This document shows positions 1,948 to 39,020 of a stretch of DNA of 43,627 nucleotides, in pieces. Where the stretch lies: sequence record MZ501107; one strand, 5' to 3'. This DNA is from Escherichia phage TheodorHerzl. Made by a program: the position numbers and the translations under genes. Under the pieces are notes generated by a model. That model saw only the letters and a list, made by a program, of their open reading frames with translations, was not told the DNA's origin and did no database searches. Positions within the stretch are counted from its first letter, which is position 1; every line of letters starts with the position of its first letter.

Positions 1948-3468
1948 ATGACCGTTAACGTTGACAACCAGCACCCGCTCTATGCGCGCATCGCGCCAGA
2001 GTGGAAAATGATCCGTGACTGTGTAGCAGGGGAGCGCGCCGTGAAGGCGTGCGGCCCCTTATACCTGCCACACCCAGCCAGTGGCGACAACACTGACCCG
2101 AAAGCACGGGCGCGGTATAAGGCGTACAAGCAACGCGCTGTATTCATGAACGCCACCGCCCGTACACTTAACGCGCTGTTAGGCGTTGCCTTTGCTAAAC
2201 CGGTAAGTCTGGACCTTTCCGGGGCAATGGCTGACCTGATTGACGACGTAGACGGCAGCGGTATGCCGCTGCCGCAACTCCTGCGCGGTGCTATGTCTGA
2301 AGTTCTGCAATCAGGCCGTGCGGGCTTTATGGTCGACTACGACCGCCAGGCGCATTTTGATGAACTTGGTAACGTAGTGCCGCAGACAGCCGCCGAGATG
2401 GCGTCACACCGCCCGCTTATCCGCCTGTACACGGCAGAACAGATCATCAACTGGCGGCAGACCCACGGCGTCGATACGCTAATTGTGCTGAAGGAGACGG
2501 ATGAAATCAGCACCGAAGACCCGGACGACTTCGCAAACCACGAAGTAACAATCTGGACCGAGCTTCGCATGATTAACGGTGCAGCACACGCCCGCCGCTG
2601 GTACTACAACGCCGACACGTCCGAGGTGCAAATGGACTTGCCGCGTGGATTCACCCGCACCGACCTTGTACCGCTGGTGGATGCTGCCGGTAATGCGCTG
2701 ACACAACTTCCGTTTTGCTGGTGTGGCGCGGTGGATAACAACGCGACGCCAGACGCCGCGCCGCTGGCGGATATTGCATCCATCAACATTAAGCACTACA
2801 ACGCCGAAGCGGACGTCGCCGAGATTGCGCACATCGTGGGCCAACCTACCCTGGTGGCAACTGGCTTGACTCAATCATGGGCGGACAAAAACCTGAAAGG
2901 CGGCATCGCGCTCGGAGCGACTAAGGGCGTTATCCTTGGCCAGAACATGGACGCCAAACTGATTCAGGCCGAGGAGCGCAACTTGTCTGTTACACTGTGT
3001 GAGCGACGCGAATTGCAAATGGCTAAACTGGGCGCGGCCCTGGTCGAGAAGGGGACCGCACCTAAGACGGCAACCGAGGCGGCATACGATGCGCAGACTG
3101 ATAACAGTATCCTGTCGCTTATTGCCGGTAACGTTGAGAAGGCTTTCAACCGTGCGCTGCAAATCGTCCAGCTATTCACGGGCGACACTGCCGACCAGCG
3201 CGTAACGCTGAACAAGTTCTACACCGAAATCACGGTTGATGCGCAGCTTATGACCGCGATGATGTCGGGGGTGCAGACCGGCACGGTCCGCCTGGCTGAC
3301 TTCATCAAGTGGATGATGGCGCAGGGTGTCATCGACGACTCGCAAACCGTCGAGCAGGTGGAAGACGAATTGCGAAATCAGAATCCATTGCCCCAAATGT
3401 CCCCCGATGCGGTAGAATCTACCGAAGAAGACCCGGACAAGGTAGCGGACGATGGCGAGAACAATTAA
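1948..3468 (+). CDS. portal protein
   Basis: 506 aa ORF immediately after terL, with RBS AAGGAAA upstream and an acidic C-terminus. Assignment by size and synteny. Confidence 0.85.
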   Translation: MTVNVDNQHPLYARIAPEWKMIRDCVAGERAVKACGPLYLPHPASGDNTDPKARARYKAYKQRAVFMNATARTLNALLGVAFAKPVSLDLSGAMADLIDDVDGSGMPLPQLLRGAMSEVLQSGRAGFMVDYDRQAHFDELGNVVPQTAAEMASHRPLIRLYTAEQIINWRQTHGVDTLIVLKETDEISTEDPDDFANHEVTIWTELRMINGAAHARRWYYNADTSEVQMDLPRGFTRTDLVPLVDAAGNALTQLPFCWCGAVDNNATPDAAPLADIASINIKHYNAEADVAEIAHIVGQPTLVATGLTQSWADKNLKGGIALGATKGVILGQNMDAKLIQAEERNLSVTLCERRELQMAKLGAALVEKGTAPKTATEAAYDAQTDNSILSLIAGNVEKAFNRALQIVQLFTGDTADQRVTLNKFYTEITVDAQLMTAMMSGVQTGTVRLADFIKWMMAQGVIDDSQTVEQVEDELRNQNPLPQMSPDAVESTEEDPDKVADDGENN

Positions 3469-4555
3469 TCAATATATGGCGGACCGCATGATCCGCCGTC
3501 ACATCTTCACCCAGCGCCTGAGCAATGACCAGGCGCGGAGGGTGCTGGCTATGTGGGAGAAGTTCCGGCCCACGTTACTGGGTAAGCTGACCGAGTTACT
3601 TGATGGCAAAAAGTCCATGAATAACAAGGCACTTACCACACTTTTAACGCAACTCGACAAGACCGTTAAAACGGAACTGCGCGCCGAGTTTAAAGTGCTG
3701 GCGGAGAGCCTTCAGGAGTTCGCCGACACCGAGGCTGATTATCTCGCTGACACACTAACGGCAGCGATCCAGCCCGCTGTCGCCGTACCCGCTGTTGAAG
3801 TAGTTGGCGTTGTTACCGGCGCGCAGATTGCAGCGACGGCAGTGAAAAACCCGTTCCAGGGTAATACGATGATGCAATGGCCTGACTCACTTTCCGAGTG
3901 GACCCGGACGCAGATCGGCAACCAGGTGCGCGCCGGATTCATCCAGGGCAAGCCAACGATGGAAATTATCGCGGACGTGAGGCGCGCACTCGGCGGTCGT
4001 AGTGCGCAAGCGATCTCAAGCGTTGTTAAGTCCGCGGTCAACCACTATGCGGCGACCGCCCGCGAATTAATGGTAAAAGCTAATGACGATATTCTCGAAG
4101 GTCGCCAATGGTTGGCTACATTGGACACTCATACTTCCCCTATGTGCCAGCTACGCGATCGCCTGTTTTATCCTGTTGACGTCACTCCCGACACCAAAGG
4201 AAAACGCGGCGGGAAAGTGGTGGCGGGATCACAATATGGCGCTGGTCCGGGCAAGCTGCATTATTGCTGCCGTTCGACGGAGACGTGGAAAGTTAAGGGC
4301 ATGGAAGATTGGCCCAGTGGTAAGCGTCCGGCACTGAAGGCTGACGCGGGCCGATTGCTGAGTGAGCAGGTCGACGCGCAGACTGATTTCTTCTCCTGGG
4401 TGCAGCGCCAGCCTCGCCATATTCTGGAGGAATTATATGGGGTGCAGCGCGCCGATCAGATTATGCGCGGCGTGAAAGTTCCGAAGATGTTTACCGATTC
4501 TGGCGAACTGATGACTATTGCACAGCTTAAAAACCGGGGGTTATGGCGTGATTAA
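3452..4555 (+). CDS. head morphogenesis / minor head protein (Mu F / SPP1 gp7-like)
   Basis: 367 aa overlapping the portal 3-prime end. Position and the region WLATLDTHTSPMCQLRDRLFYPVD are typical of this family as I recall it. Confidence 0.75.
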   Translation: MARTINQYMADRMIRRHIFTQRLSNDQARRVLAMWEKFRPTLLGKLTELLDGKKSMNNKALTTLLTQLDKTVKTELRAEFKVLAESLQEFADTEADYLADTLTAAIQPAVAVPAVEVVGVVTGAQIAATAVKNPFQGNTMMQWPDSLSEWTRTQIGNQVRAGFIQGKPTMEIIADVRRALGGRSAQAISSVVKSAVNHYAATARELMVKANDDILEGRQWLATLDTHTSPMCQLRDRLFYPVDVTPDTKGKRGGKVVAGSQYGAGPGKLHYCCRSTETWKVKGMEDWPSGKRPALKADAGRLLSEQVDAQTDFFSWVQRQPRHILEELYGVQRADQIMRGVKVPKMFTDSGELMTIAQLKNRGLWRD

Positions 4556-4877
4556 GTATGCAGCGATTGGGCTGGTTATCGGTCTGGCGGTGGGATTCTG
4601 GCTAGGTGACTCCTATCGCGCTGGCGTAGTGGCGGAGGCGGCGCAAGAAGCGCAAGCCCAAGCCCAACGGCAGCAAACTAAAGTTGTTGAGCGCTCCGTG
4701 CAGGCAGAACAGGCCCGCGACGTAGAATACCGGACTATCACGAAAGAGGTTGTTAAATATGTTACGCGCCCTAACCGCCCTGATTGTAATTTTGATTCTG
4801 AGCGCGTGCGGATCAAGCAACGTGCCGTTGATGCCGCTAACGGAGTCGGCACTGCGACCGCCGTGCAAGTTCGATAG
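4548..4877 (+). CDS. putative i-spanin (Rz-like)
   Basis: N-terminal transmembrane helix AAIGLVIGLAVGFWLG followed by a charged coiled-coil-like region AQEAQAQAQRQQ. A lipoprotein ORF is embedded in another frame. Start is uncertain (GTG 4548 or ATG 4518). Confidence 0.55.
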   Translation: MIKYAAIGLVIGLAVGFWLGDSYRAGVVAEAAQEAQAQAQRQQTKVVERSVQAEQARDVEYRTITKEVVKYVTRPNRPDCNFDSERVRIKQRAVDAANGVGTATAVQVR

Positions 4878-4989
4878 CCCGTCCGCAGACCCCGACGAGG
4901 ATTTGATGATTGACGTGAAAAATATGGAATGCGGGGCGAATCTAAGGGCGCAGGTGCTGGAGTTGCAGCAAATAATTCGGGGGCCGTAA
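4759..4989 (+). CDS. putative o-spanin (Rz1-like outer-membrane lipoprotein)
   Basis: Signal peptide with lipobox MLRALTALIVILILSAC, a Pro-rich mature part with extra Cys, RBS GAGG 9 nt upstream. Starts inside the Rz-like ORF in a different frame and runs past its stop. Confidence 0.55.
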   Translation: MLRALTALIVILILSACGSSNVPLMPLTESALRPPCKFDSPSADPDEDLMIDVKNMECGANLRAQVLELQQIIRGP

Positions 4990-5002
4990 TGGCCCCTTTT
5001 TG
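4978..5002 (+). terminator. intrinsic terminator after the spanin pair (possibly bidirectional)
   Basis: GC hairpin GGGGCC-GTAAT-GGCCCC followed by TTTTTG; it overlaps the o-spanin stop. Coordinates approximate. Confidence 0.6.
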
Positions 5003-5006
5003 TTAG

Positions 5007-5519
5007 CTACAAACGCATCGGCATGATAACAAGGAAGGCACCGCCTTTGAACAGCACACGTGTCGCCTTGTCTACTCCCTGAAATTCCAGTTTTAAGCTA
5101 TCAAACTTACGGTCGAACAATTTAGCAATTTTGCAGGCGTCTGACAGGTATGCCCCAGCAAACCCGATAGCCTCCACTTTAGCGCTGTCGAAAGACGTAA
5201 ATCTACTCCAGTCTGGGAATCGGCCGTCTACGATCTCTATGGGTATGGTACAGATTAATACGTCTTTACTTTCAAAGAACGCAGCGGAGGTGCCGTCTAT
5301 GTTGCAGTATTCGAATTTAGTAGGTAAGCGGCCTTTAATTGCTACTATTTTACTTTCACCTTCGGGAACAACCGCGGACCCGCAGAACAAGCGATGACCG
5401 TTGGTGGCCACAATGAATCCTTTCTCGTCGAAAAATACACCATTTAGGTAGTATCGCACGTCATTAGTTGCGGCGCACATCGTAGCGGCTTTAAGTTCGG
5501 CATAGTTAACTTTAATCAT
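5007..5519 (-). CDS. truncated beta sliding clamp (DnaN domain II-III) homologue
   Basis: 171 aa from the ATG preceded by RBS AGGAA. DVRYYLNGVFF, ATNGHRL, IVDGRFPDW and C-terminal LVIMPMRL match E. coli DnaN DVRYYLNGMLF, ATDGHRL, LVDGRFPDY and VVMPMRL as recalled from memory. Domain I is absent. Confidence 0.8.
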   Translation of the reverse strand: MIKVNYAELKAATMCAATNDVRYYLNGVFFDEKGFIVATNGHRLFCGSAVVPEGESKIVAIKGRLPTKFEYCNIDGTSAAFFESKDVLICTIPIEIVDGRFPDWSRFTSFDSAKVEAIGFAGAYLSDACKIAKLFDRKFDSLKLEFQGVDKATRVLFKGGAFLVIMPMRL

Positions 5520-5540
5520 TGTCATTTCCTCGTTGTTGGT

Positions 5541-5580
5541 GTGCAACCAATATAGTGCAACCAATACGCGGATTGCAAGC
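5541..5580 (-). promoter_or_regulatory. sigma70-like promoter for the clamp-fragment gene, containing two ATTGGTTGCA motif copies
   Basis: Minus-strand reading gives TTGCAA, an 18-nt spacer that includes ATTGGTTGCAC, then TATATT, with a second TTGGTTGCAC just downstream. Coordinates approximate. Confidence 0.5.
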
Positions 5581-5668
5581 GAATTTTGCGATTATTTTTA
5601 TCACTGATAATATTAGAGGCGTGAAGTCGAGCGGGTGGCCTGCTCTGCCACAATCCCAGGGGGATAGC

Positions 5669-6367
5669 ATGAAACTTACTAAAGCAGAATATGACGCGTT
5701 GCCGGAAGGTATGAAGGCGCTTTTTGTTGCCGATGGCGACGGGTATAAATCAACGTTCATGACCGCAGAAGAAGTACAGGCGGAAATCAAGGGTCTGAAA
5801 GACAACAACGCTAAGCTGGTGAGCGAGAAGAAAGCAGAAGCTGAACGCCGCGCAGAAGCTGAGCGCCTTGCGAAAGAGAAAGAGGAAGCCGCCGCGCGCA
5901 AAAACGGCGACCTCGAAGCGATCGATAAGTCCTGGAAGGATAAGTTTGCGAAACACGAAGCAGATACATCGGGAAAAATCGAAGCCTACCGCAAGCAGAT
6001 CCACGACCTAACCATCGGCAGCGCTGCCAAAGACCTGGCGTCGAAGCTGTTCGGTAAGAATGCGGGAATCATGCAACGCCACGTAATGGACCGCCTGACG
6101 CTGGAAGACGGCGAAGACGGCAGCTTGAAAGTGCGTGTCTTGCAGGATGGCAAACCATCCGCGCTGACTATGGAAGAGCTTGAAAAAGAGTTCCGTAATA
6201 ACGCCGATTTCGCATCCGTCCTGGCTGGCACGCCAGCCAGTGGCGCGCCTAGCAAACCGACGCAGGTTGTCGAAGATGTGAAGTCTAAAATTACGATGGG
6301 CCATAGCTTCGGTATCACCGATCTCACCAAACAGGCCGGGGATATCATCGCAAAAATGGGCGACTAG
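5669..6367 (+). CDS. scaffolding protein
   Basis: 232 aa from the ATG at 5669. Highly charged, Ala/Lys/Glu-rich predicted coiled coil (KKAEAERRAEAERLAKEKEEAAARK), located immediately upstream of the capsid gene. Confidence 0.7.
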   Translation: MKLTKAEYDALPEGMKALFVADGDGYKSTFMTAEEVQAEIKGLKDNNAKLVSEKKAEAERRAEAERLAKEKEEAAARKNGDLEAIDKSWKDKFAKHEADTSGKIEAYRKQIHDLTIGSAAKDLASKLFGKNAGIMQRHVMDRLTLEDGEDGSLKVRVLQDGKPSALTMEELEKEFRNNADFASVLAGTPASGAPSKPTQVVEDVKSKITMGHSFGITDLTKQAGDIIAKMGD

Positions 6368-6467: not shown

Positions 6468-7568
6468 ATGTCTTTAACAGTGTTCCAGCGTAAACTCGTT
6501 ACCGCGGTTACGCAAATGATCCCCGACAACCTGAACGTTTTCAACGCCGCCGCCAATGGCGCTGTTGTTCTCGGTACTGGTGAAGTGCTGAAGGATGTTG
6601 TAGAAAAAATGTCCGTAGGCTTGATCGCCAACCTCGTTACAGACCGTAACGCCTATGCCCCTGTCGGTACTCCGGCGACCGCAAAAGTGCTGGCGCGTAT
6701 GCTGACCAACTCGGTTAACCTTTCCGCGAAAGTGGGTCCGGTAGCAATCACTAAGGCCATGACTGCTAAGATCGAAACCAACGTTAACAGCGTTGCGGCT
6801 GAGATTGCGGCGCAGGCTACTCAAGCGATTATGCTGCACTACCTGAAAGCGGGTATCGGCGCAAGTAAAGCGGCGATCGAAAGCAACGCAGCGGCAAAAT
6901 ACACCCAACCGGCGCGCGTTGATGGCGTTGGCGGTCGTACCTTCCCGACCCTGGCAGACTTCCCGCTGGCGGCGTCTAAGTTCGGCGATCAGGCGTCTTT
7001 GATTAAGTCCTGGTTTATGGACGGTGTTACCTGGGCAAACTTCATTGCGTACCAGGCGCTCCCTTCCGCTGAACATGTATTCGCAATTGGCGATCTTCAG
7101 GTAATGGGTGATGGCCTGGGCCGTCGTTTCATTATCTCCGATGCCGCTGCCGGTGCTATGGGCACGGGTAACATGCTGGGTCTGGTCCCTGGCGCGGTTG
7201 CCGTTACCACCAACGGCCTCGATATGCTGGCGCAGGAGAAAGGCGGTAACGAGAACATCGAACGCTGGTGGCAGGGTGAGTTCGACTTCAACGTGGCGGT
7301 TAAAGGCTACCGTCTGAAGGCGTCCGCTCGTACTCCGGTAGAAGGTGTGCGCTCGTTCAAGCTGTCTGATATCACCACTAAGGATAACTGGGAGCTTGAC
7401 AATGGCCAGGTAGACAACGCACCGGCAACCGTGCAGGACGTTGGCGCTGTTGGTGATGGCGATACTAAAGGCCGTCGTAAGACCCAGGCCGCACAGGTAG
7501 TGCCGACCCGTCACATCAAGGAAACGGCGGGCGTACTGGTTACGCTGACTGAGACCAAAGCGTCCTGA
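6468..7568 (+). CDS. major capsid protein
   Basis: 366 aa with RBS AAAGGA, directly after the scaffold gene and followed by a strong terminator. The mirror ORF on the minus strand (6474-7577) has an Arg/Cys-rich nonsense-like composition. Confidence 0.8.
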   Translation: MSLTVFQRKLVTAVTQMIPDNLNVFNAAANGAVVLGTGEVLKDVVEKMSVGLIANLVTDRNAYAPVGTPATAKVLARMLTNSVNLSAKVGPVAITKAMTAKIETNVNSVAAEIAAQATQAIMLHYLKAGIGASKAAIESNAAAKYTQPARVDGVGGRTFPTLADFPLAASKFGDQASLIKSWFMDGVTWANFIAYQALPSAEHVFAIGDLQVMGDGLGRRFIISDAAAGAMGTGNMLGLVPGAVAVTTNGLDMLAQEKGGNENIERWWQGEFDFNVAVKGYRLKASARTPVEGVRSFKLSDITTKDNWELDNGQVDNAPATVQDVGAVGDGDTKGRRKTQAAQVVPTRHIKETAGVLVTLTETKAS

Positions 7569-7584
7569 TCTACGCACATCAAAA

Positions 7585-7613
7585 ATGGGCGGGCTTATGC
7601 CCGCCTTTTTTAT
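7585..7613 (+). terminator. intrinsic terminator after the capsid gene
   Basis: GGGCGGGC-TTAT-GCCCGCC followed by TTTTTTAT. Confidence 0.75.
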
Positions 7614-7626
7614 AGGAGCAAATAAG

Positions 7627-8127
7627 ATGTATGGCGACCCGCAAACCTTTGTCGATTATGCCGCTGCGCGAGGCGTTGAAATTACGCTGGGCGATGCAAC
7701 TCGACACCTTACCGTCGTTAATGACTTCCTTAACGGCATCAACTGGATCGGCGAACAAGCGGACCAGACCGGAATCGACGCATGGCCCCGCATCAATTAC
7801 CCATCGGACGGTAAGCCGGTGCGCGACACGCTAACCGAAGTCGTGGCGGTAGTGCCTGTCGGGCAAATCGTAGACTTTGCATCAATCCCCGTTGCCGTTG
7901 AGCAAGCTGTTTACCGGCTGGCGCTGTTGGTGGCGGACGAGATCGATATTTCTCCGGTCGGCGATGGTAAAGAGACTATCCGCGAAACGGTCGGCCCGAT
8001 CACGATGGAATATGACCCGGCGTCGATTGGTAGCGGGGTGTCGTTCCCGTGGTGGGATGGCTTGTTAGGCCACTGGGTTGATTCAGGCGGCAACGCCGCA
8101 GGCAATTTCGACGTATTCAGGGGGTAA
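7627..8127 (+). CDS. head-tail connector / adaptor protein (putative)
   Basis: 166 aa from ATG 7627 with RBS AGGAG. Position between capsid and tail genes; no specific motif recognised. Confidence 0.45.
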   Translation: MYGDPQTFVDYAAARGVEITLGDATRHLTVVNDFLNGINWIGEQADQTGIDAWPRINYPSDGKPVRDTLTEVVAVVPVGQIVDFASIPVAVEQAVYRLALLVADEIDISPVGDGKETIRETVGPITMEYDPASIGSGVSFPWWDGLLGHWVDSGGNAAGNFDVFRG

Positions 8128-8128
8128 T

Positions 8129-8248
8129 ATGAATCCTGCATTACTCGCGGCGATAATCGCCGCCAACACTAAACAGCCGCCGGAACAAGAACCGGAGCCA
8201 GAACAAGTACAACCGGCACAGGAGAGCGAAGAAGATGGCGGGCTTTAA
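8129..8248 (+). CDS. small acidic Pro/Glu-rich protein (39 aa), hypothetical
   Basis: ATG one nt after the upstream stop, RBS AGGGGG. Translation MNPALLAAIIAANTKQPPEQEPEPEQVQPAQESEEDGGL. Its stop overlaps the next gene. Below the ORF-track size cutoff. Confidence 0.3.
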   Translation: MNPALLAAIIAANTKQPPEQEPEPEQVQPAQESEEDGGL

Positions 8249-8588
8249 TTACGCAGGATTAAAGCGGAAAGTGAATCCGCTGATTAAAAAATTCGGCATG
8301 ACCGTTACGGTTACGCGTCCGGGATCGGTTGACCGTGTAGACGGCGACGAAGTGGTAATCCCGCCAACGTCGTTTGACGTCATCGGTCTTCGCGAGGAGT
8401 ACAAGCCTAGCGAGATCGACGGAACGCGTATCGTTGCCGGTGATGTGAAGTTTTTATGTCGGGCGGTTGAGCAATTGCGGGTGGGCGACCTTGTTAACCT
8501 GAACGGCACTGACTACAGGGTCATCAACCCAAACCCCCTGCAACCGGCTGGCACAACCATGCTGTTTCAACTACAGCTAAGGGGGTAA
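8235..8588 (+). CDS. head-tail joining / head closure protein (putative)
   Basis: 117 aa in the connector region. Assignment by synteny and size only. Confidence 0.45.
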   Translation: MAGFNYAGLKRKVNPLIKKFGMTVTVTRPGSVDRVDGDEVVIPPTSFDVIGLREEYKPSEIDGTRIVAGDVKFLCRAVEQLRVGDLVNLNGTDYRVINPNPLQPAGTTMLFQLQLRG

Positions 8589-8589
8589 C

Positions 8590-9183
8590 GTGGCTGAAGT
8601 CTACTCGTTCGCCGCCACTATTGCTACGTGGGTGGATAAGACGAAGGAGAACAACGACAAGGCGGTGCGGGCGTACGGTATGCAAATACTCGGACGCCTG
8701 ATCGAGATCTCCCCAGTGGGCGACCCGCGCCGATGGAAAATTAACAGGGCTTACGCGCTCGCCCGCCAGCACGCAAACAAGGTGAACGCCGCACAGCGTC
8801 GCAAGAATGGCGGCAAACTGAAGCGCGGTCAGAAGAAGCACGCCAGTGTGCTGGTATCATTCAAAACTAAAAACGGCAACGTCACGTTCCGCCAGCGCGG
8901 CTGGGCCGCGAAGAATTACACCGGGGGGCGCTTCCGGGGGAACTGGCAGGTGACGTTCGACCGCCCGGCTGTTGGCGCTATTGACCGCGTGGACAAGGCC
9001 GGAACGGCAACATTAGCCGCTGGGCGTGAAGTGCTGGCACATTACGATTCGAGTGAATACGGGTCGATCTGGTTTACTAACAACGTGCCATACGCGCAGC
9101 GCCTAGAGTATGGCTGGAGTAAACAAGCGCCCGCGGGGATTGTTCGCGTAGTAGCGGCAGAAATTAATTCGAAGGTGAAATAA
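8590..9183 (+). CDS. neck / tail-completion protein (HK97 gp10-like, putative)
   Basis: 197 aa with GTG start and RBS AAGGGGG. Position between head closure and tail genes. Confidence 0.45.
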   Translation: MAEVYSFAATIATWVDKTKENNDKAVRAYGMQILGRLIEISPVGDPRRWKINRAYALARQHANKVNAAQRRKNGGKLKRGQKKHASVLVSFKTKNGNVTFRQRGWAAKNYTGGRFRGNWQVTFDRPAVGAIDRVDKAGTATLAAGREVLAHYDSSEYGSIWFTNNVPYAQRLEYGWSKQAPAGIVRVVAAEINSKVK

Positions 9184-9605
9184 TGAGCAATACTCTAATC
9201 CGCAAGGCGCTTAACCGCGTGGTAGAAGATTTATCGGTAAGCCTGAGCACCAGCCAGCGACCGATCCTTGTTAACTGGGAGAACGTGCAAGGGGACCACG
9301 CAAACGGCAGCGGTGTCTACCTGGAACCATATCTGCTTCCGGCCCCTACCCAGTTTGTGGGCTTCCAGCAGAAGGGCCGGATCTATGCAGGCGTGTATCA
9401 GATTGCCGTGGTATTTCCTGCGGGCACTGGCACACAGTATGCGAGCGAACTGGCGGACGCCATCGCGACGTCTGACAAGTGGCAGGCCGTAAGGCTTACC
9501 GGCGCTGCGTTCCAGCTTCAAGACGCGCCATACACCAGTTCGGTGATTGAGGATGTTGATCGCGCCCGCATCGTGGTTACAGTACCCTACACCTGTTGCG
9601 CCTGA
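9183..9605 (+). CDS. tail terminator-like protein (putative)
   Basis: 140 aa with ATG overlapping the upstream stop; lies immediately upstream of the major tail protein. Confidence 0.45.
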   Translation: MSNTLIRKALNRVVEDLSVSLSTSQRPILVNWENVQGDHANGSGVYLEPYLLPAPTQFVGFQQKGRIYAGVYQIAVVFPAGTGTQYASELADAIATSDKWQAVRLTGAAFQLQDAPYTSSVIEDVDRARIVVTVPYTCCA

Positions 9606-9665
9606 TTTGGCGCAATTCTGCGCGTGCTGTATCATTAAACCGTATATCTAAACAGGAGCTTTATT

Positions 9666-10391
9666 ATGGGTTATCAACTTCCCAACGGGTCCAGCGTCCA
9701 GATCGGGTCCGTATTAGGCAGCGGCATCGCGGTTACGGCAGCTACCAACGCCGCGGCGTCAATCTCCGATCTTACGCAAGGTTGCGTAATTACCTGCGCG
9801 GCTTTGCATGGTCTGGTTGTTGGCGACGTTGTTATGTTCACTAAAACCCCGTGGGTCCGAGCGCTTAACCGCGCATTCATCGTGGGTAAAGTGGACGCCA
9901 ACGACGTTACGCTGGCGCGCTTCGACACCGAAGACGTCACAAAATACCCGACCGGCGCTTTCAGCGTAGGCACTCCAGGCGAAGTGGTGAAGGTGTCGGG
10001 CTTTATCGACTTCCCTTTCATTACTAACGTTGCCGTGTCTGGTGGCGACCAGCAGACGACTACCTTCCAGCCGTTGCAGGTGAACACCGCAATCAGTCTG
10101 AACACCACGAAAAACCCGTTGGTACAGACTTACACTTTCACCCACGACGAAGAAGACCCGATCCGCCCAATCCTGGAAGACCTGGACGACACACAGAAAA
10201 CCACTGTGATTAAGTTCACGAACCCAGCGGCAGCAAGCGGCAAAGGTGAAATCCGTATTTACCCTGCTAAGGTATCTTTCCAGAAGATTCCGTCCGCTGA
10301 AGTAAACAACGTGGAAACGGTGCAGTCCACTCTGACCATGCAGTCTGATATGGTTATCTACCGTAAGGACCTGGTCGAGGCGTTGTCTTGA
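9666..10391 (+). CDS. major tail (tube) protein
   Basis: 241 aa with RBS AGGAG, followed by a terminator and then the G/GT chaperone genes. Canonical siphovirus order. Confidence 0.7.
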   Translation: MGYQLPNGSSVQIGSVLGSGIAVTAATNAAASISDLTQGCVITCAALHGLVVGDVVMFTKTPWVRALNRAFIVGKVDANDVTLARFDTEDVTKYPTGAFSVGTPGEVVKVSGFIDFPFITNVAVSGGDQQTTTFQPLQVNTAISLNTTKNPLVQTYTFTHDEEDPIRPILEDLDDTQKTTVIKFTNPAAASGKGEIRIYPAKVSFQKIPSAEVNNVETVQSTLTMQSDMVIYRKDLVEALS

Positions 10392-10421
10392 TTTGGTCGC
10401 TTAAATAGCGAGTGTTAATAT

Positions 10422-10448
10422 GGGGCCAGCAAGGCCCCTTTTTTTATT
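10422..10448 (+). terminator. intrinsic terminator after the major tail protein
   Basis: GGGGCC-AGCAA-GGCCCC followed by a run of eight T. Confidence 0.75.
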
Positions 10449-10461
10449 GGAGAATATTACA

Positions 10462-10824
10462 ATGGCTAAAGCACCACTCTTTACACTTGACCCTAAGCCG
10501 ACCTTTAAGCTGCCGATTGAGATCCCGCGCCCTGGTGAGAACGAACCAGGCAAGATGACGTTTACCGTCCGCCACCGCCCTATCGACGAATTTTCGCAGA
10601 CCATGCAGGACACCGAACGCAAGTTGTCGGAGTATGACGACAATGACCCGGACGGCTTTAACGTTATGGTCGAGGCCATCATGCACGTCGCAGAAGGCTG
10701 GAATCTGCCGGACGAATTTAACGCGGAGAACGTCCGCCGCCTGGTGGTCAACTATCCACGCGCGTTCGGTGTGTTCCACACTTCGTACTATCTCGAACTG
10801 ATGGGATTGCGTGAAAAAAACTAA
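10462..10824 (+). CDS. tail assembly chaperone (G-like)
   Basis: 120 aa from ATG 10462. Ends MGLREKN* with a slippery A-run at its 3-prime end; an open -1 frame continues downstream. Confidence 0.75.
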   Translation: MAKAPLFTLDPKPTFKLPIEIPRPGENEPGKMTFTVRHRPIDEFSQTMQDTERKLSEYDDNDPDGFNVMVEAIMHVAEGWNLPDEFNAENVRRLVVNYPRAFGVFHTSYYLELMGLREKN

Positions 10825-11138
10825 TTGAGGCGGCGCGACGCTTTTATGGCCCGCCGCCACCCTCCGAAGATTTAGCCGCAAGTTTATGGGGTGCGACCCC
10901 CGAAGATGTTTGTCCGCCTGTTGCGCTGTGGCCTGACAACGCGAAGATAGTCGCAGTCTTCACAGATTGCGCCACGCAATGGCGCACCGGATTTGGTGGC
11001 GCATACGGCATCGACTACGGCGTGATGGAGTGGTTATTTAAGATGCACGGTATCGAAAACGAGCAGCGCGCGTTTAAAGATATCAAGCTAATGGAACGAA
11101 TCGCGCTTGATGAGATGGCGCAGCAGAACCCCGCATAA
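10462..11138 (+). CDS. tail assembly chaperone GT fusion, produced by -1 frameshift near 10815-10821
   Basis: The -1 frame extension reads LIEAARRFYGPPPPSEDLAASLWGATPEDVCPPVALWPDNAKIVAVFTDCATQWRTGFGG...MAQQNPA and sits where the T-extension is conserved in siphoviruses. Confidence 0.6.
10815..10821 (+). other. programmed -1 ribosomal frameshift site (A AAA AAC)
   Basis: Heptamer A_AAA_AAC spans the last codons of the G-like ORF. The -1 frame (codon starts divisible by 3) stays open to TAA at 11136-11138. Confidence 0.65.
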
Positions 11139-11258
11139 TGAAGCGGGACAGGCGGGACGTCCCGTTTTGTCCCACCCCTGTGAAACTGCATACCTACTCA
11201 CTTCCATTGCATAATATAAAAGCGGGACAGGCGGGACGTCCCGTTTTGTCCCACCCCA
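11136..11258. repeat. direct repeat: two copies of a ~39-bp unit AAGCGGGACAGGCGGGACGTCCCGTTTTGTCCCACCCC spaced ~80 bp
   Basis: The unit appears identically at about 11141-11178 and 11220-11257. Each contains the palindrome GGGACGTCCC flanked by GGGACA and TGTCCC. Confidence 0.85.
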
Positions 11259-11299
11259 CAAAAGTGCATACGTATTCGGTTTTCGTGCATAAAACAAAC

Positions 11300-11400
11300 T
11301 GGACAAAAAGCGGGACAAACACTAGGCGGGACAAAGCGGGACAGCACCCCGTCCCAGCCAGTGCTGCCGCGGTTTTCAGCCGATCGGGACAGCGGGACAG
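11300..11400. repeat. GGGACA iteron block A
   Basis: Repeated GCGGGACA(A/G) units; about 70 bp is nearly identical to 38636-38705. Confidence 0.8.
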
Positions 11401-11405
11401 CACCC

Positions 11406-11453
11406 CAGTCTTTCAGACTAGACGGGGGTCAACGGCCCCCCTCGTCTGAGACT
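11406..11453 (+). repeat. conserved long imperfect hairpin A (copy of 38757-38803)
   Basis: CAGTCTTTCAGACTAGACGGGGGTCAACGG(C5-6)TCGTCTGAGACT followed by GAATAA. Inverted arms TCAGAC/GTCTGA and GGGGG/CCCCC. This copy appears to carry one extra C relative to copy B, judged from the reading frame of the overlapping ORF in the track. Confidence 0.75.
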
Positions 11454-11522
11454 GAATAAGGTTTGTTTTGAAATCGCTGATACAATATCCATCGGCAACT
11501 GCATAAAAAAGGGGACTGCATA

Positions 11523-14165
11523 ATGGCAGATCAGGCAGCAGGCATCACGCTAAAGGCTGATGTTGCACAAATCAGAACGGCAAATACTGTGCTGGACTCC
11601 TTCGCACAGAAATCCGAGAACACAGAAAACAAGGTTAAGAAATTAAACGACACCCTCGGCAAATCCAAAAAGGTGACGAGTGACGCCGCGGGCGGAATGG
11701 AAAAGCTGGCAAACGAATCGCAGCGCGCCGCCGATGGCATGACGAAACAGGAGCGACTCGCCAACAGGTTAGGGATGTCGACTAAAAACCTGGGCTTTGC
11801 CTCGCGTAACGCCGCATTCCAGCTACAGGATATTGCGGTAACGCTTGAGATGGGTATGCCGGTTCACCGCGTCATGCTTCAGCAGTTACCGCAGCTAACT
11901 GGGGCGTTCGGTGGACTGGGTAACACGCTGCGTTATGTTGCGGGCTTCCTCGGCCCAGTAGGGATCGGCCTCGCCGCCGTAACGGCAACGTTAGGCGTGG
12001 GCGTGGCAATTACGTCCCGCGCAGAGAACCAGGTCGCCGCGCTTAACAAGACGCTGGCGCTGTCAGGTAACATTTCCGGCCTGACGGCAAACCAGATCCT
12101 GGTGTTATCCGAGAACGCCGAGCGCATGGGCGGATCATTCCGCAAGACGCGTGACACAATCCAGGCGCTGGCGGCGGCGGGTGTGAAAGCGGGTGGTGAC
12201 TTCGGTGCATTGGCTAAGGTAGTGAATGACTTCGCGAAGGTGTCCAGCCAGCCGATCGAGGATGTGGTCGCGGCGGTGGCGAAGCTGTCTACAGACCCGG
12301 TAGGCGGCTTGCGAGCATTGGCTGATAAGTATCACGTCGTAAACGAAGCGCAGATCCAGCAGGTGCAGTCACTAATGACGGCTGGTCGCGAAACCGAAGC
12401 GGTGGCGCTGGCTAACAAAACAGCCGCGGCGTCGTTTACCACTATGACCAACGATATTAAGTCCAGCATGGGTACGCTTGAGCGGTCGATGAACGTCGTT
12501 ACATCGGCAGCTAAATCTATGTGGGATGCCATCCTGGATGTCGGGCGCGCGCAGTCCTCGAATGAGTCAGAGATGAAAGCGCGTGAATCATTGCAGCGAC
12601 TGACCACGGCTTACTATGCCGAGATGAAAGCGGTAAACGCTGCCGGTGGGGTGATGACCGAAGCGCAGAAAGCACGTATTAACATGCTTTATAGCGAAAT
12701 GGTCGCCCAGGAGAAAGTAGTCGCGTCGCTCACCCTGCGCAACCGTGCAGAGCGTGACAACGCCAACGCCGCGGAACAATCAGCAAAGGCGAACGAGGAG
12801 GCAAACCGCACTGCCCGCGACCGCGCCGCGTTTGAGAAGGAGTACGCAACCAACGCTAAGCGGCGCGCCGACGAGATCGCCCGCCTCAATTTGCTTAATA
12901 AGCGCGGCGTGATTAACGAGAAAGAGCTTGCCGAGGCGGTGAAGCAGGTAAACGAGCGTTACAAAGACCCCGCCCCGAAGAAGGCCGCCGCTGTTCGAGT
13001 CGATGCCGGGCTGAAAATGCTGGAGGTCGCACGGAGCGAACTGGCACAGCTTCGGGAATCAGGCAAGCAGATTGAGGCCAACTCTTCGACGCAGACCCGC
13101 ACGCAACGAGCGCAAGCGGCCCTTAACAAGCTGATTGCCGACAACGAGCAGTTAATCGCCGCGAGCAAAGAAAGGGCGCTGACGGCAGCAGAGAAGCAGC
13201 AATTAGTCGAGTTCGGACGCGTGAAGGAAGTACGTGAGCAGATCGTCGAAGAAGCCAAATTGCTGGACGCGAAAGAGAAGCAGGTCAAGGCGCACGCGCA
13301 GATCGACGCCTTCGTTAAGAACCAGAACGCCGAGCTAAAAGCCACCGCGGCGGGATATGCGCTTTCCACTCGCGAAGCGGCTAACCTGCGCGAAGAATTG
13401 CAGCTAATTGACCGCCTTAAGCGGGTGGGCGCTAGCGATACCGATATTGATCTGGCGGTGTCTAAGCTGCGCGAAGTGCAGGAAGCACAGACCGGTGCTA
13501 ATGCCTCGTTGTGGGATGGCTTCAGCCGCGGGCTTAAGGATAGCGTGGATGAAATGGGTAACTGTTATACGCAGATGGCGTCACTCACAAAATTCACGTT
13601 CGGCGCTATGCAGGACACGATGAACGAGTTTTTCGAGACTGGCAAGCTGAACGCAAAGGATATGGTTAAGTCCATCCTGAGCGAATTAATCAAGCTGGCT
13701 ACATCGCAGGCATTCAAGTCCATCGTTAACGCTTTCGGTGGTGACGGCGGCAAAAACGGATTGTTCGGCGCTATCTTCTCTGGCCTCACTAAGAATGCGG
13801 ACGGCGGAGCGTACGCAGGGGGCAATCTCGCGGCCTATTCGGGGAAAGTGGTAAGCCAGCCTACCTTTTTCAGTTATGGCGTTCAGGCGTTCGCTAAGGG
13901 CGCGGGATTGATGGGCGAGGCTGGACCCGAGGCCATCATGCCACTGAAGCGCGGGCCGGACGGGAAACTGGGCGTTGCCGCGTCTGGAGCAGGCGGAGGT
14001 ATGGTCGTGACGACTAACGTTTACACGGGGTCCGGTAAAACAGATACCAGTGTCAGCGGGCCGGACCCCCGTACCGCGCAGGCGTTCGGCAAGCAAATCA
14101 CCGAAGCGGTGAAGGCCGAGATCGTGAAAGCGACGAAACCGGGTGGTGTACTTTACAAACGATGA
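11523..14165 (+). CDS. tape measure protein
   Basis: 880 aa, largely alpha-helical and Ala/Gln-rich, with Gly-rich hydrophobic segments. Lies after the G/GT genes. Confidence 0.9.
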   Translation: MADQAAGITLKADVAQIRTANTVLDSFAQKSENTENKVKKLNDTLGKSKKVTSDAAGGMEKLANESQRAADGMTKQERLANRLGMSTKNLGFASRNAAFQLQDIAVTLEMGMPVHRVMLQQLPQLTGAFGGLGNTLRYVAGFLGPVGIGLAAVTATLGVGVAITSRAENQVAALNKTLALSGNISGLTANQILVLSENAERMGGSFRKTRDTIQALAAAGVKAGGDFGALAKVVNDFAKVSSQPIEDVVAAVAKLSTDPVGGLRALADKYHVVNEAQIQQVQSLMTAGRETEAVALANKTAAASFTTMTNDIKSSMGTLERSMNVVTSAAKSMWDAILDVGRAQSSNESEMKARESLQRLTTAYYAEMKAVNAAGGVMTEAQKARINMLYSEMVAQEKVVASLTLRNRAERDNANAAEQSAKANEEANRTARDRAAFEKEYATNAKRRADEIARLNLLNKRGVINEKELAEAVKQVNERYKDPAPKKAAAVRVDAGLKMLEVARSELAQLRESGKQIEANSSTQTRTQRAQAALNKLIADNEQLIAASKERALTAAEKQQLVEFGRVKEVREQIVEEAKLLDAKEKQVKAHAQIDAFVKNQNAELKATAAGYALSTREAANLREELQLIDRLKRVGASDTDIDLAVSKLREVQEAQTGANASLWDGFSRGLKDSVDEMGNCYTQMASLTKFTFGAMQDTMNEFFETGKLNAKDMVKSILSELIKLATSQAFKSIVNAFGGDGGKNGLFGAIFSGLTKNADGGAYAGGNLAAYSGKVVSQPTFFSYGVQAFAKGAGLMGEAGPEAIMPLKRGPDGKLGVAASGAGGGMVVTTNVYTGSGKTDTSVSGPDPRTAQAFGKQITEAVKAEIVKATKPGGVLYKR

Positions 14166-14172
14166 TAAAATG

Positions 14173-14201
14173 GCCCTCACATCCATCGTGGGGGCTTTTT
14201 T
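14173..14201 (+). terminator. terminator-like hairpin plus T-run after the tape measure gene
   Basis: GCCCTCAC-ATCCATC-GTGGGGGC followed by six T. Confidence 0.5.
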
Positions 14202-14801
14202 ATGTCACAAGGTACAATCACATTAACTAAGGGGAGTAAGACCGTTACGGGCGCGGGAACGGCGTTCCTTAGCGAGATCGGGAAGGTACGCGTATTTACC
14301 CGCATAGACGGCAACGACTACACCGGCAAAATTGCGGCATTCAACTCGAACACGGTCATTACACTGAAAGATAACTGGGCCGGTCCGACGAAATCCGGTG
14401 CGGCATATGAACTAATCGAAGCACACGACCCGCGGTCAAACGAATGGCCATATTACTGGCACATGCAATTGCAGGGCGGCGGCGACGTGCAGTTAGCTTT
14501 CCGATCCGAGGAATTGCAATTCGGTAATGGTTACGGGCAGAACATCGCGGACGGCCAGAACGCCGAGACGAAACAATTTCCCGTGCAATTCATAGGACTG
14601 ACTACTGACAAGTGGTGCGACCCTAAACTGGTTTACAACTTTCTTCGCGGTCACTTCGTCAAACCGTTTGTCGTCACCGCTCCGGATGGCGAAACAGGTT
14701 TATTCGTGGTCGAGCGTTCGAGCTTGTCGTACACTGACAACGGACACAACACGGCAACGGTATCCGCCACCCTTAAGACAGCTATTGGATTCGTAAGATG
14801 A
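14202..14801 (+). CDS. minor tail protein (M position) with an N-terminal domain shared with the tail fibre
   Basis: 199 aa, first gene after the tape measure. Its N-terminal ~75 aa (MSQGTITLTKGSKTVTGAGTAF...SNTVITL...GPTKSG) align with the N-terminus of the 21655 fibre (MAAGTLSVTNNSKAVVGVGTTF...SNTALTL...GPTATG). Confidence 0.7.
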   Translation: MSQGTITLTKGSKTVTGAGTAFLSEIGKVRVFTRIDGNDYTGKIAAFNSNTVITLKDNWAGPTKSGAAYELIEAHDPRSNEWPYYWHMQLQGGGDVQLAFRSEELQFGNGYGQNIADGQNAETKQFPVQFIGLTTDKWCDPKLVYNFLRGHFVKPFVVTAPDGETGLFVVERSSLSYTDNGHNTATVSATLKTAIGFVR

Positions 14802-21344: not shown

Positions 21345-21574
21345 TAGTTCCACTCCCGGGAGCCATAATCGCGAACGGAGCCGCCATGCCCTTTAATTCC
21401 GTCATAACGAATATCAACTTCACCCGCCGGAACGACTACACCGCCTTTCCATTTAGCCACACATACGCCGCTTGCTTGCGTAGCGCACCAACCATCCGGA
21501 CGCGGGCCAGAAGAGCAACCAACAGTTATTACTACTACCGCGGCAATGATTGCGGATTTGATTAAAGTTTTCAT
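21344..21574 (-). CDS. small outer-membrane lipoprotein (76 aa), candidate Cor/Llp-like superinfection-exclusion protein
   Basis: RBS GGAGAT upstream. Signal peptide with lipobox [20 protein letters not shown], and a mature part with two more Cys. Position next to the tail fibre genes matches where T1/phi80 cor and T5 llp sit. Confidence 0.55.
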
Positions 21575-21654
21575 GTTATCATCTCCTTTATTTGGTTGAG
21601 TTTTAGTATTACACCGCTCGATCAAGAATGCAACCAATTTAAGAGGATTTAGCT

Positions 21655-24592: not shown

Positions 24593-24622
24593 ACTATAAT
24601 GCAACCAACCTATTGGTTGCAA
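24593..24622 (-). promoter_or_regulatory. sigma70-like promoter containing a palindromic ATTGGTTGCA pair
   Basis: Minus strand reads TTGCAA, then the 18-nt spacer CCAATAGGTTGGTTGCAT, then TATAGT. The 8-4-8 palindrome GCAACCAA-nnnn-TTGGTTGC overlaps the 3-prime end of the HAD gene. Coordinates approximate. Confidence 0.55.
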
Positions 24623-26508: not shown

Positions 26509-26542
26509 AATATAATGCAACCAATATGATTATGCAACCAAT
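26509..26542 (-). promoter_or_regulatory. sigma70-like promoter TTGCAT-N17-TATATT built from two direct ATTGGTTGCAT copies
   Basis: Minus strand reads ATTGGTTGCAT AATCAT ATTGGTTGCAT TATATT. Coordinates approximate. Confidence 0.55.
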
Positions 26543-26866
26543 TTACGCATAAAAGTTCGGGTCGCGTGCAACGTCTACCAGGTAAAGGTTGCTTATGCGG
26601 TTGCCGTAGTGCCCTGGGGTGCGCTGGCGGCACACAACGGCGAAGCCTGGAGGGATTGTATTGCCCGTCGCAATAATCCACGCCACGCGTGCGCCAGACA
26701 GCGTCTTGCCGTTGCATTCGATACGGGTTCCGCCGTCGGCAGTGTTAAGGTTGCCAATCTTGCAGCCGGTGGACTTCAGACGGATGACCCCGGTTTTGCT
26801 GTCGTAGGTGAATAGCTGGTTAGTCATTGCGACCGAAAAGTCGATTGCTTCGAATGAAGTATTCAT
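26543..26866 (-). CDS. HNH-type endonuclease-like protein (putative)
   Basis: 107 aa. The pattern NGKTLSGARVAWIIATGNTIP...NLYLV resembles HNH_3-type homing-endonuclease domains. Assignment from memory. Confidence 0.45.
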   Translation of the reverse strand: MNTSFEAIDFSVAMTNQLFTYDSKTGVIRLKSTGCKIGNLNTADGGTRIECNGKTLSGARVAWIIATGNTIPPGFAVVCRQRTPGHYGNRISNLYLVDVARDPNFYA

Positions 26867-29323: not shown

Positions 29324-29363
29324 TAACCGGCACACTATACCGCTATGCGACCAATTCAGCAAC
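29324..29363 (-). promoter_or_regulatory. sigma70-like promoter TTGCTG-N17-TATAGT with ATTGGTTGC and ATTGGTCGCAT motif copies
   Basis: Minus strand reads ATTGGTTGCTG AATTGGTCGCATAGCGG TATAGT. Coordinates approximate. Confidence 0.45.
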
Positions 29364-29621
29364 CAATAAATCACAGTCGGCGATGTTGTCTATAACGCGA
29401 ACGTCAGCGCCGCGGCGGGCCATCCGCTCATGTTCACGTACCTGGTGCGGCTTCGGTTTTCCTCCGGGGCGCTTCACTTCGACGAACACTATTTTGCCGT
29501 TGATGATGATAATCAGATCGGGCGCACCTGCGCGCCCCTCCCATGCCAGTTTGCGGCAGAATCCGCCCACCTCTTTCACCCGTCGCATCAGGTGACTTTG
29601 AATCTTGCCTTCTGGAGTCAT
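29343..29621 (-). CDS. VRR-NUC domain nuclease
   Basis: 92 aa from the ATG with RBS AGGAAG, overlapping the polymerase stop (TAATG). GAPDLIIIINGKIVFVEVKRPGGKPKPHQVREHERMARRGADVRV is a PD-(D/E)XK VRR-NUC signature. Confidence 0.75.
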   Translation of the reverse strand: MTPEGKIQSHLMRRVKEVGGFCRKLAWEGRAGAPDLIIIINGKIVFVEVKRPGGKPKPHQVREHERMARRGADVRVIDNIADCDLLVAELVA

Positions 29622-32950: not shown

Positions 32951-33193
32951 TCAAGCATTTTCATTAAAAAGATTTCTGGTCACGTAGTTGGTAGCGTTCT
33001 CGATCCAGCTTAACGGCGGGCGGTTGATGTTCTTCTCCACCCAATCGGCGGCAGCTTCGCTATAGCCGTCATCCAACCAGCTGGTCTGATGTCGAATCAT
33101 CCACGCCACCATTAACACGCCTTGCACACAATGCAGGATAAAGCCCAGCGCGCCGAGCAAAAACATCAATAAGATTGCGAATACTTTATTCAT
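32951..33193 (-). CDS. small membrane protein
   Basis: 80 aa with an N-terminal hydrophobic helix FAILLMFLLGALGFILHCVQGVLMVAWMI. Confidence 0.5.
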   Translation of the reverse strand: MNKVFAILLMFLLGALGFILHCVQGVLMVAWMIRHQTSWLDDGYSEAAADWVEKNINRPPLSWIENATNYVTRNLFNENA

Positions 33194-35536: not shown

Positions 35537-35772
35537 GGTATATCTCCGATTGGTTAAGTTTAGGTGTCGGCAGTTAACTTCGTCGGTGGCCTTAACATAT
35601 TGCCAGGTTACGCGTTCTCCCGTTCGGGTAGTGGACCTGGTTATATAATCACGGTTGGGAATCCTGACACTTCGATCCGGCCCCTGCGTTGCCCCTCTCC
35701 AGTTTGCGTCCTGTATCCTGTCGACGGAGTGAATAATAGATTGGTTGCAGGATGGGTGTCAACAACTAATTT

Positions 35773-38542: not shown

Positions 38543-38588
38543 ATTTTGCGCGCATTGGTTGCCATTTTGAGTGTTTTTATCTGGTCGT

Positions 38589-38616
38589 ATTGGTTGCCGT
38601 GTAGTGTAAGTATAAT
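38589..38616 (+). promoter_or_regulatory. ATTGGTTGCC motif copies followed by a TATAAT -10 box
   Basis: Motif copies at 38554-38563 and 38589-38598; TATAAT at 38611-38616 (anchored to the track ORF that starts at 38546). Confidence 0.4.
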
Positions 38617-38635
38617 GAATAGTTATGCAATAAAA

Positions 38636-38756
38636 CTGCATAAACCAAACGGGACAAAAAGCGGGACAAACACTAGGCGGGACAAAGCGGGACAGCACCC
38701 CCGTCCCGCCCCGGATGACGCGGCCTGGAGAGGAGCGGGACAGCGGGACAGCACCC
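38636..38756. repeat. GGGACA iteron block B (homologous to 11287-11400)
   Basis: GGGACA at 38651, 38663, 38679, 38689, 38738 and 38745. The block TGCATAAACCAAACGGGACAAAAAGCGGGACAAACACTAGGCGGGACAAAGCGGGACAGCACCCCCGTCCC is nearly identical to region A. Confidence 0.8.
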
Positions 38757-38803
38757 CAGTCTTTCAGACTAGACGGGGGTCAACGGCCCCCTCGTCTGAG
38801 ACT
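38757..38803 (+). repeat. conserved long imperfect hairpin B (copy of 11406-11453)
   Basis: CAGTCTTTCAGACTAGACGGGGGTCAACGGCCCCCTCGTCTGAGACT followed by GAATAA. Confidence 0.8.
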
Positions 38804-38958
38804 GAATAAAATCCGAGGATTGCAAATTACACGGCAGCATGTTGCGAAGTGCGGTCGCGGATGAACTAGGCAACCAATGCGAGTTGTATTATGCTGAGTG
38901 AAAAATGTGGTTTGCAGTCACAGCAGATAGCGATCGACTTTTTCATGCGCGTGATTAA

Positions 38959-38993: not shown

Positions 38994-39020
38994 GGTTGCA
39001 CACCAACGGGAGGGCGGAAC

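Follow-up and report, generated by a model that had tools for sequence, protein, structure and literature searches.

A truncated homologue of the bacterial sliding clamp that keeps the client-binding pocket occupies an accessory slot in Escherichia phage TheodorHerzl

Why would a phage carry part of a sliding clamp, encoded against the direction of its late genes? Escherichia phage TheodorHerzl (record MZ501107), analysed here as a stretch of 43,627 nucleotides (the window), contains a minus-strand gene, hereafter mini-β, which separates an Rz/Rz1-type spanin pair from the gene for the head scaffolding protein. The original prediction, made from the sequence alone, described its product as a truncated β clamp composed of DnaN domains II and III, which could act as a decoy for host clamp-binding proteins, poison the assembly of the host clamp or tether the phage family A polymerase. 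Gene positions confirm both the reading frame, of 170 amino acids and a stop codon, and its antisense placement inside the head/late gene block. The 19-kDa product is a homologue of DnaN, yet not a DnaN.

The reference used for alignment was DnaN of E. coli K-12 (b3701, from NC_000913.3), to which mini-β is ~35% identical. All four motifs that had been cited as matching DnaN are found on re-alignment with this sequence: DVRYYLNGVFF pairs with DVRYYLNGMLF (DnaN residues 150–160), ATNGHRL with ATDGHRL (171–177), IVDGRFPDW with LVDGRFPDY (236–244) and LVIMPMRL with VVMPMRL (360–366). BLASTP gives two collinear high-scoring segment pairs, one between query residues 9–106 and DnaN 139–246 (E 4e-11) and one between 109–170 and DnaN 309–366. 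Comparison of a 29-sequence family alignment with E. coli DnaN by hhalign yields a probability of 99.5% (E 2.9e-22) with the same gap. These matches are significant, and they bear out a truncated homologue in which domain I is missing, domain III is shortened, and the GRFPD loop and the MPMRL C terminus are kept.

The best PDB match by phmmer has an E value of 2e-7. Profile scores for the single sequence are weak: PF02767 scores 22.8 bits, under its 27-bit gathering score, TIGR00663 reaches 23.5 bits where its cut-off is 137.65, with no other NCBIfam match, and PF00712 and PF02768 give no match at E ≤ 10 in the Pfam search. Mini-β is therefore DnaN-homologous but not DnaN proper. Full-length phage clamps (PHROG 947) match weakly (E 3e-9), and phrog_3007 matches over the whole of residues 1–170 (E 9.2e-54). 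With DnaN, mini-β shares ancestry, the clamp fold and the pocket residues of subsites I and II; it lacks the three-domain architecture of ~366 residues, scores above the curated cut-offs and the dimer interface. It also differs from DnaN in being phage-encoded and a dispensable accessory gene.

An AlphaFold2 (AF2) model computed with the family alignment is compact and confident (predicted local distance difference test (pLDDT) 93.2; predicted template modelling score (pTM) 0.88), and the top 50 PDB matches to it in a Foldseek search are all β clamps. Relatives in BFVD are 163–250 amino acids long, with TMq values of 0.72–0.88. Residues 1 to ~108 correspond to DnaN domain II (E. coli ~130–247) and residues ~109–170 to the second half of domain III (~309–366), of which only the C-terminal β-α-β-β-β unit is kept; domain I and DnaN ~254–308, ~57 residues of domain III, are absent. 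The description as domains II and III thus holds for domain II, whereas domain III is present in its C-terminal half only. In the AF2 model of the 170-residue subfamily, a nine-residue loop (residues 62–70, pLDDT ~94) stands in for the second helix of domain II (E. coli ~198–208). The anticipated clamp fold is thus predicted, but as a half-domain and a loop in place of a helix rather than as a complete domain II–III fold. Longer family members (~190–230 amino acids) probably retain this helix, as judged from a profile match to the whole central domain. The positions of the pocket residues and the established clamp topology suggest that domain III has kept the half that packs on domain II.

In the β dimer, the interface is formed by I78/F106 and K74/R96/R103/R105 of domain I with I272/L273 and E298–E304 of domain III (PMC11139829). 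In the alignment, every one of these residues falls in a segment without a mini-β counterpart. Because both interface halves lie in missing segments, a canonical ring, or a canonical heterodimer with host β, is on this alignment not possible for mini-β. A closed, DNA-encircling ring is argued against by the loss of the interfaces and, in the model, of one inner helix. Poisoning of the host clamp, in which mini-β would pair with a host DnaN monomer and block ring closure or loading, draws on the homology to DnaN; with all six of the domain I residues and domain III 272–304 absent, we consider it very improbable.

The same losses bear on a role as processivity factor for the family A polymerase (PolA), whether as a homo-oligomeric ring or as a non-ring, DNA-binding subunit like UL42. 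The clamp fold is present and, by our own reckoning, four copies of three half-domains each would supply the 12 half-domains of a clamp. Moreover, Dhillonvirus, Ivi, Bcep781 and a Salmonella prophage all pair mini-β with the same replication module, composed of PolA, DUF2800 and an Enc34-type single-stranded DNA-binding protein (SSB). However, both canonical ring interfaces are deleted, the modelled subfamily lacks one of the three channel-lining helices, the isoelectric point (~8.2) reflects no marked basic character, and no clamp-binding motif is present in PolA. Phages that lack a polymerase altogether carry family members too. Finally, PolA is 94–96% identical at the nucleotide level in ~150 Dhillonvirus records, of which only 14 carry mini-β, so that ~90% of the phages with this polymerase do without it. 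Tethering of the polymerase is disfavoured on these grounds, and we regard it as improbable.

What has been kept is the pocket that binds clamp-binding motifs. A review of the β clamp lists 18 residues of its subsites I and II (PMC11139829); 15 of these are identical in mini-β and E. coli β, compared with 44 among the remaining 152 positions (Fisher p = 1e-5). The changes are V247→F and N320→A, and the alignment is ambiguous at V344. Since the first set of homologues had been found through shared words and could bias a test of conservation, the test was repeated on 146 diverse family representatives from an exhaustive hidden Markov model (HMM) search. Mean conservation in this set is 0.81 for pocket columns and 0.34 elsewhere (Mann–Whitney p = 3e-9), and 10 of the 13 best-conserved positions belong to the pocket. 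Among the Dhillonvirus orthologues of mini-β, the ratio of nonsynonymous to synonymous substitution rates (dN/dS) is 0.16–0.39, indicating purifying selection. A pocket can function outside a ring: monomeric β (I272A/L273A) binds the δ subunit at ~7.5 nM and the dimer at ~460 nM, as measured in the same study (PMC11139829). The pocket of a monomer can, on this precedent, hold a client very tightly.

Selection and fold also speak to the labels under which the family is currently filed. Bcep781 gp15 is annotated as 'DNA Pol III b subunit fragment', which would suit a decaying, functionless piece of dnaN, and phrog_3007 is labelled 'RusA-like Holliday junction resolvase'. A relic is difficult to reconcile with the dN/dS values, with a confidently predicted compact fold, with a length and architecture conserved over thousands of 50%-identity clusters, or with orthologues among which frequent frameshifts or stops are not seen. 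The RusA label is judged wrong because no RusA-like structure is found among the top structural matches, all of which are β clamps; Pfam likewise gives no RusA match at E ≤ 10, and Bcep781 encodes a separate, true RusA (gp22). We give next to no credence to either a relic or a resolvase. The resolvase label has nevertheless been copied into RefSeq and into Pharokka-annotated records, so that members of the family now stand as polymerase subunits or, wrongly, as RusA-like resolvases (Table 1).

How dispensable is the gene? The surrounding 4 kb are 92–96% identical to ~157 phage records, nearly all of them Dhillonvirus (SO-1, EP23 and HK578-like E. coli siphophages). Mini-β is present at ≥80% identity in 14 of these ~157 records, which confirms its predicted status as an accessory gene, and in ~144 records the slot is occupied instead by Nmad5 (PF18757), which in most Dhillonviruses is accompanied by a small reading frame. 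Nmad5 and mini-β stand in tandem in some phages (CHD5UKE2, EP23, rolling and others); TheodorHerzl, SO-1 and AV129 carry mini-β without the added segment. In EK99P-1 the slot is 950 bp long and holds Nmad5 and an open reading frame of 53 codons. Because homology to EK99P-1 breaks off at one edge of the cassette and restarts at the other, the hairpin and the promoter that flank mini-β belong to the shared frame. The alignments accordingly describe the slot as an accessory-gene socket with a fixed, putative promoter and terminator. Nmad5 of sister phages is dispensable and toxic when cloned, and a missense mutation in it escapes the Tmn defence (PMC11846954); from these properties it follows that the slot holds host-interaction genes. 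As predicted, mini-β is richer in A+T than its surroundings: its G+C content is 46.4%, the lowest among the phage genes of ≥100 amino acids (mean 54.5%, standard deviation 2.9).

Two further ideas about the slot were rejected. Nmad5 is not a divergent clamp or functional twin of mini-β: hhalign gives a probability of 0.4%, the AF2 model of Nmad5 is helical and of low confidence (pLDDT 60), and the two genes stand in tandem in CHD5UKE2-type phages. Nor is mini-β the anti-Tmn gene; that gene encodes another protein, ORF35, which is a helical rod.

When would mini-β be expressed? The predicted TTGCAA-N18-TATATT promoter is present in the 149-bp divergent intergenic region (5520–5668), but it is not the gene's own, being part of the conserved slot and common to the Nmad5-carrying relatives. 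A scan of 4700–6000 returns 2 such sites where 1.1 are expected, and the mini-β site taken alone is not significant. Two copies of a repeated motif, TATTGGTTGCAC (core TTGGTTGCA), overlap this promoter. The motif has 13 sites in the window at up to two mismatches (3.4 expected; none of 100 shuffles reaches 13), and the 11 sites away from mini-β lie at 21.5–39.7 kb, ahead of early and replication-region genes. Its usual form is an extended −35 element (TTGCAT) followed 17 nucleotides on by TATATT, TATAGT or TAATAC, and paired copies cover the spacer and the −10 element at three promoters. An identical 20-mer is found at 5535–5554 and 38988–39007. The motif is likely to be an early-promoter or operator signature of the phage, and its distribution supports, by inference, early co-regulation of mini-β with the replication-region genes. 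At 24611 the motif forms a palindrome, TGCAACCAA..TTGGTTGCA.

On its other side, mini-β is bounded by a G+C-rich hairpin that looks like a bidirectional terminator for the spanin genes and mini-β. With its plus-strand T-run, this strong hairpin stands midway in the head/late gene block, immediately past the spanins, and the scan finds no σ70-like plus-strand promoter ahead of the scaffold gene (5669). Late transcription has to pass this hairpin, or to restart from signals outside the scope of the scan.

The family extends well beyond Dhillonvirus. A profile search retrieves 28,709 representatives at E ≤ 1e-3, true DnaN included, 9,852 at E ≤ 1e-10 and 88 at E ≤ 1e-30; the best 150 of the 28,709 matches are 141–271 amino acids long, bar one of 502, and nearly all match end to end. 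Family members are ~160–230 amino acids long and have no curated Pfam or NCBIfam model. No domain fusions were found, and the longer members (up to 502 amino acids) have low-complexity tails only. By tblastn, the family is present in 271 phage records from Salmonella, Escherichia, Klebsiella, Vibrio, Burkholderia, Proteus, Serratia, Pseudomonas and others. It is also present on large plasmids, in prophage-like regions; an assignment to plasmid leading regions was rejected, as the plasmid matches are prophage-like early regions between repressor and integrase.

We surveyed the context of 84 loci, grouped at 60% identity into 12 lineages, and distinguish four arrangements. In lambdoid prophages, mini-β lies between cII-like and O-like/DnaB-like genes, with the order cII, mini-β, O-like, DnaB-like in at least 14 loci. 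In Salmonella prophages, it opens the operon behind a cI-like repressor and is followed by further genes, DUF2800, the Enc34-type SSB, Nmad5 (or a SIR2-like gene) and PolA. Both Dhillonvirus slot genes are therefore components of a replication operon elsewhere. In Skatevirus and phage Eta, mini-β is downstream of a ParB-like gene (PF17762); in Skatevirus, which has no polymerase, an anti-restriction gene precedes the pair, and in Eta a helicase gene follows it. This arrangement resembles early establishment or anti-defence cassettes. Finally, in Dhillonvirus, Ivi and Bcep781, mini-β is a lone antisense gene between a MuF-like head-morphogenesis gene and a scaffold or protease gene. In the lambdoid prophages, the Salmonella prophage, Skatevirus and Eta, the family stands at the head of early or replication operons. 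Judged by gene order, what unites the contexts is expression early and close to the replication genes, in phages that bring a polymerase as well as in those that do not. Among the Salmonella prophages, L093–L095 (genes 7001–14528) carry Nmad5 between the Enc34-type SSB and PolA, with a variant in L093 in which a SIR2_2-domain gene takes the place of Nmad5. This prophage is a temperate relative of the Dhillonvirus replication module.

These contexts provide the case for the main rival explanation, an adaptor whose pocket brings a host replication protein (candidates are Pol III α, the clamp loader, Pol I or ligase) or a phage protein to the phage DNA or primosome, thereby aiding replication or recombination. 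Mini-β heads replication operons in the lambdoid loci, the Salmonella prophage and Eta, and its carriers include phages dependent on host Pol III, in which inhibition would defeat itself. No consistent phage partner was found, however; the neighbours vary by lineage. The window proteome contains no protein with a terminal clamp-binding motif, and loose matches number 3 against ~8 expected; no neighbour family has a consistent terminal motif among 1,853 neighbouring proteins of the 84 loci. Furthermore, mini-β is dispensable in Dhillonvirus and absent from ~90% of records with the same replication genes, and neither a second interaction surface nor a fused domain was identified on it. An adaptor is, in our assessment, rather unlikely.

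Two of the loose matches are internal and not above chance: QLNLY at residue 563 of an AAA_25 primase/helicase-like protein (36278–38542, plus strand) and QLMLY at residue 192 of the DUF2800 nuclease (33186–34616, minus strand). Lambda-CII-like proteins encoded directly upstream of mini-β were considered as partners and rejected, as only 3 of 14 unique sequences end in Q[IV]xMxF. The three C-terminal ends, QISMEF, QIDMHF and QVTMNF, match the hexameric clamp-binding consensus. The C terminus of lambda CII itself is QIQMEF.

We tentatively favour, at somewhat less than even confidence, a soluble, non-ring receptor for clamp-binding motifs that acts as a competitor or decoy. This reading is favoured because selection has acted on the pocket and the ring functions have gone, because the phages can dispense with the gene and its slot is one for host interaction, and because a monomer can bind clients tightly; the pocket conservation fits it. 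Mini-β would be a monomer-sized, non-ring derivative of the bacterial clamp that has kept a contiguous sheet region across the domain II/III boundary, carrying a pocket of the Q-φ-x-L-F type, and has shed the parts that would close the ring, namely domain I together with the distal half of domain III. Host RNA polymerase would transcribe it, probably early, from a promoter that forms one class with those of the phage's replication region. The product may then bind clamp-binding motifs in trans and withdraw at least one host client from the host clamp, candidates being the clamp-loader δ subunit, Hda, MutS/MutL and the translesion polymerases.

Several observations weigh against the decoy. Many carriers of the family rely on host Pol III and β (lambdoids with O/DnaB-like genes; polymerase-less Skatevirus), and a general decoy for α or δ would harm such phages, so that any decoy has to be selective or dose-limited. 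A position at the head of a replication operon fits a positive role in replication equally well. The pocket itself is altered at V247 and N320, where N is the family consensus at the latter position, and pocket residues are the most conserved ones in DnaN generally. Because the profiles that retrieved the family weight pocket columns, the enrichment described above is partly a matter of ascertainment and hence circular. PADLOC-DB contains 0 families that match mini-β at E ≤ 1, and no link between mini-β and defence was found in the literature.

A broader form of the decoy, possible but doubtful, would make the whole family widespread viral client traps, reduced to the pocket, that rewire the host clamp network, with the slot serving as a socket for takeover or counter-defence. 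Targets would be Hda, δ, proteins of mismatch repair or translesion synthesis, or some restriction or defence activity that depends on the clamp, and the effectors of the Dhillonvirus slot, mini-β and Nmad5, would be interchangeable.

How does a decoy of this kind compare with known systems? E. coli β* is a UV-inducible internal product of dnaN that contains domains II and III whole; it was reportedly found by Skaliter, Paz-Elizur and Livneh in 1996 to oligomerise and to support polymerase activity. Mini-β had been likened to β*, and the likeness extends to the loss of domain I in a shorter clamp protein with its pocket retained. It does not extend to complete domains II and III, because DnaN ~254–308, including one half of the interface, is deleted and helix 2 of domain II is now a loop; mini-β is, in addition, a separate and highly diverged gene. 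Full-length phage clamps (PHROG 947; Ralstonia phage Heva and Gordonia phages) are likewise phage-encoded DnaN homologues with structural similarity in BFVD, but they have 340–400 amino acids and three domains and are presumed to be ring-forming parts of replisomes, whereas the mini-β family has its own PHROG (3007). Herpesvirus processivity factors (herpes simplex virus UL42, human cytomegalovirus UL44, Kaposi's sarcoma-associated herpesvirus PF-8 and Epstein–Barr virus BMRF1) are non-ring clamp folds of two full domains that bind DNA and the C terminus of their own polymerase; for mini-β, which is dispensable, no link to a cognate polymerase was found.

Phages are also known to handle the clamp–client network from the other side. 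MuC of phage Mu has a clamp-binding motif, and its overexpression is lethal, with over-initiation in the host (PMC12867686). MuC and Gp168 of Staphylococcus phage Twort (PDB 7evp) attach to the host clamp without being clamp homologues themselves, whereas mini-β would bind the clients, a mirror image of the same strategy.

The work of all five polymerases of E. coli, and of the clamp loader, Hda and mismatch repair, is coordinated through the pocket of the β clamp, which is also an antibiotic target. A soluble version of this pocket in thousands of phage and prophage lineages would show which clamp client phages most need to control, and would supply a tool for genetics and a minimal scaffold on which to screen inhibitors. 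The existence of the gene was already on record, and its novelty had been overstated: SO-1 gp07 is annotated in GenBank as 'putative DNA polymerase III beta subunit; possible moron'. Full-text literature searches turned up neither a functional study of the family nor a paper on it, and no description of its architecture, pocket-only conservation, size and contexts, or function.

Table 1. Coordinates of mini-β, its flanking elements and related loci. Positions are those of the window or, where a locus (L) is named, of that locus.
Feature	Source	Coordinates	Strand	Remarks
mini-β coding sequence	Window	5007–5519	−	170 amino acids; TAG stop at 5007–5009, ATG start at 5517–5519; sequence reading and alignments
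Shine–Dalgarno sequence GAGGA	Window	5527–5531	−	7 nucleotides 5′ of the mini-β ATG; direct sequence reading
σ70-like promoter	Window	5549–5578	−	TTGCAA (5578–5573), 18-nucleotide spacer, TATATT (5554–5549); 9/12 consensus positions
Two direct copies of TATTGGTTGCAC	Window	5541–5566	−	5555–5566 and 5541–5552; overlap spacer, −10 and start region
TATTGGTTGCAC positions	Window	5541–5566, 21513–21639, 24611–24622, 26515–26543, 29357–29368, 35739–35750, 38588–39001, 39719–39730		
G+C-rich hairpin GGGGGCCGTAATGGCCCC	Window	4979–4997	both	T-run on plus strand, weaker tail on minus strand
Variable cassette	Window	5008–5532		EK99P-1 homology (96%) ends at 5007, restarts at 5533
i-spanin and o-spanin	Window	4518–4989	+	Overlapping reading frames 4518–4877 and 4750–4989; upstream flank
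Head scaffolding protein	Window	5669–6367	+	Start MKLTKAEY at ATG 5669; downstream flank
Slot counterparts in relatives	L002; L090	1509–2458; 2909–4615		
ParB-like/mini-β operon	Skatevirus Seszw_1, L098	6655–8523		gp17–gp19
ParB-like/mini-β operon	Phage Eta, L007	4161–7550		
CII-like proteins directly upstream of mini-β	L032; L054; L064	5115–5408; 3828–4169; 5468–5980		
Misannotated family member	SO-1, L001	2508–3026		gp07
Misannotated family member	Bcep781, L006	5001–5582		gp15
Misannotated family member	Seszw_1, L098	6655–7191		gp17

The gene boundaries at the locus were assigned as follows. A longer, TTG-initiated reading frame of mini-β (to 5564) was rejected, and the short ATG start preferred, because orthologues begin at the same MIKV. 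The o-spanin bears an LSAC lipobox. In SO-1, the scaffold gene gp08 (SO-1 locus 3056–3874) is annotated ~40 codons longer than its EK99P-1 counterpart. For the window, the MKLTKAEY start, which has its own ribosome-binding site, is more likely than an extension of the SO-1 type, which would run into the divergent promoter region.

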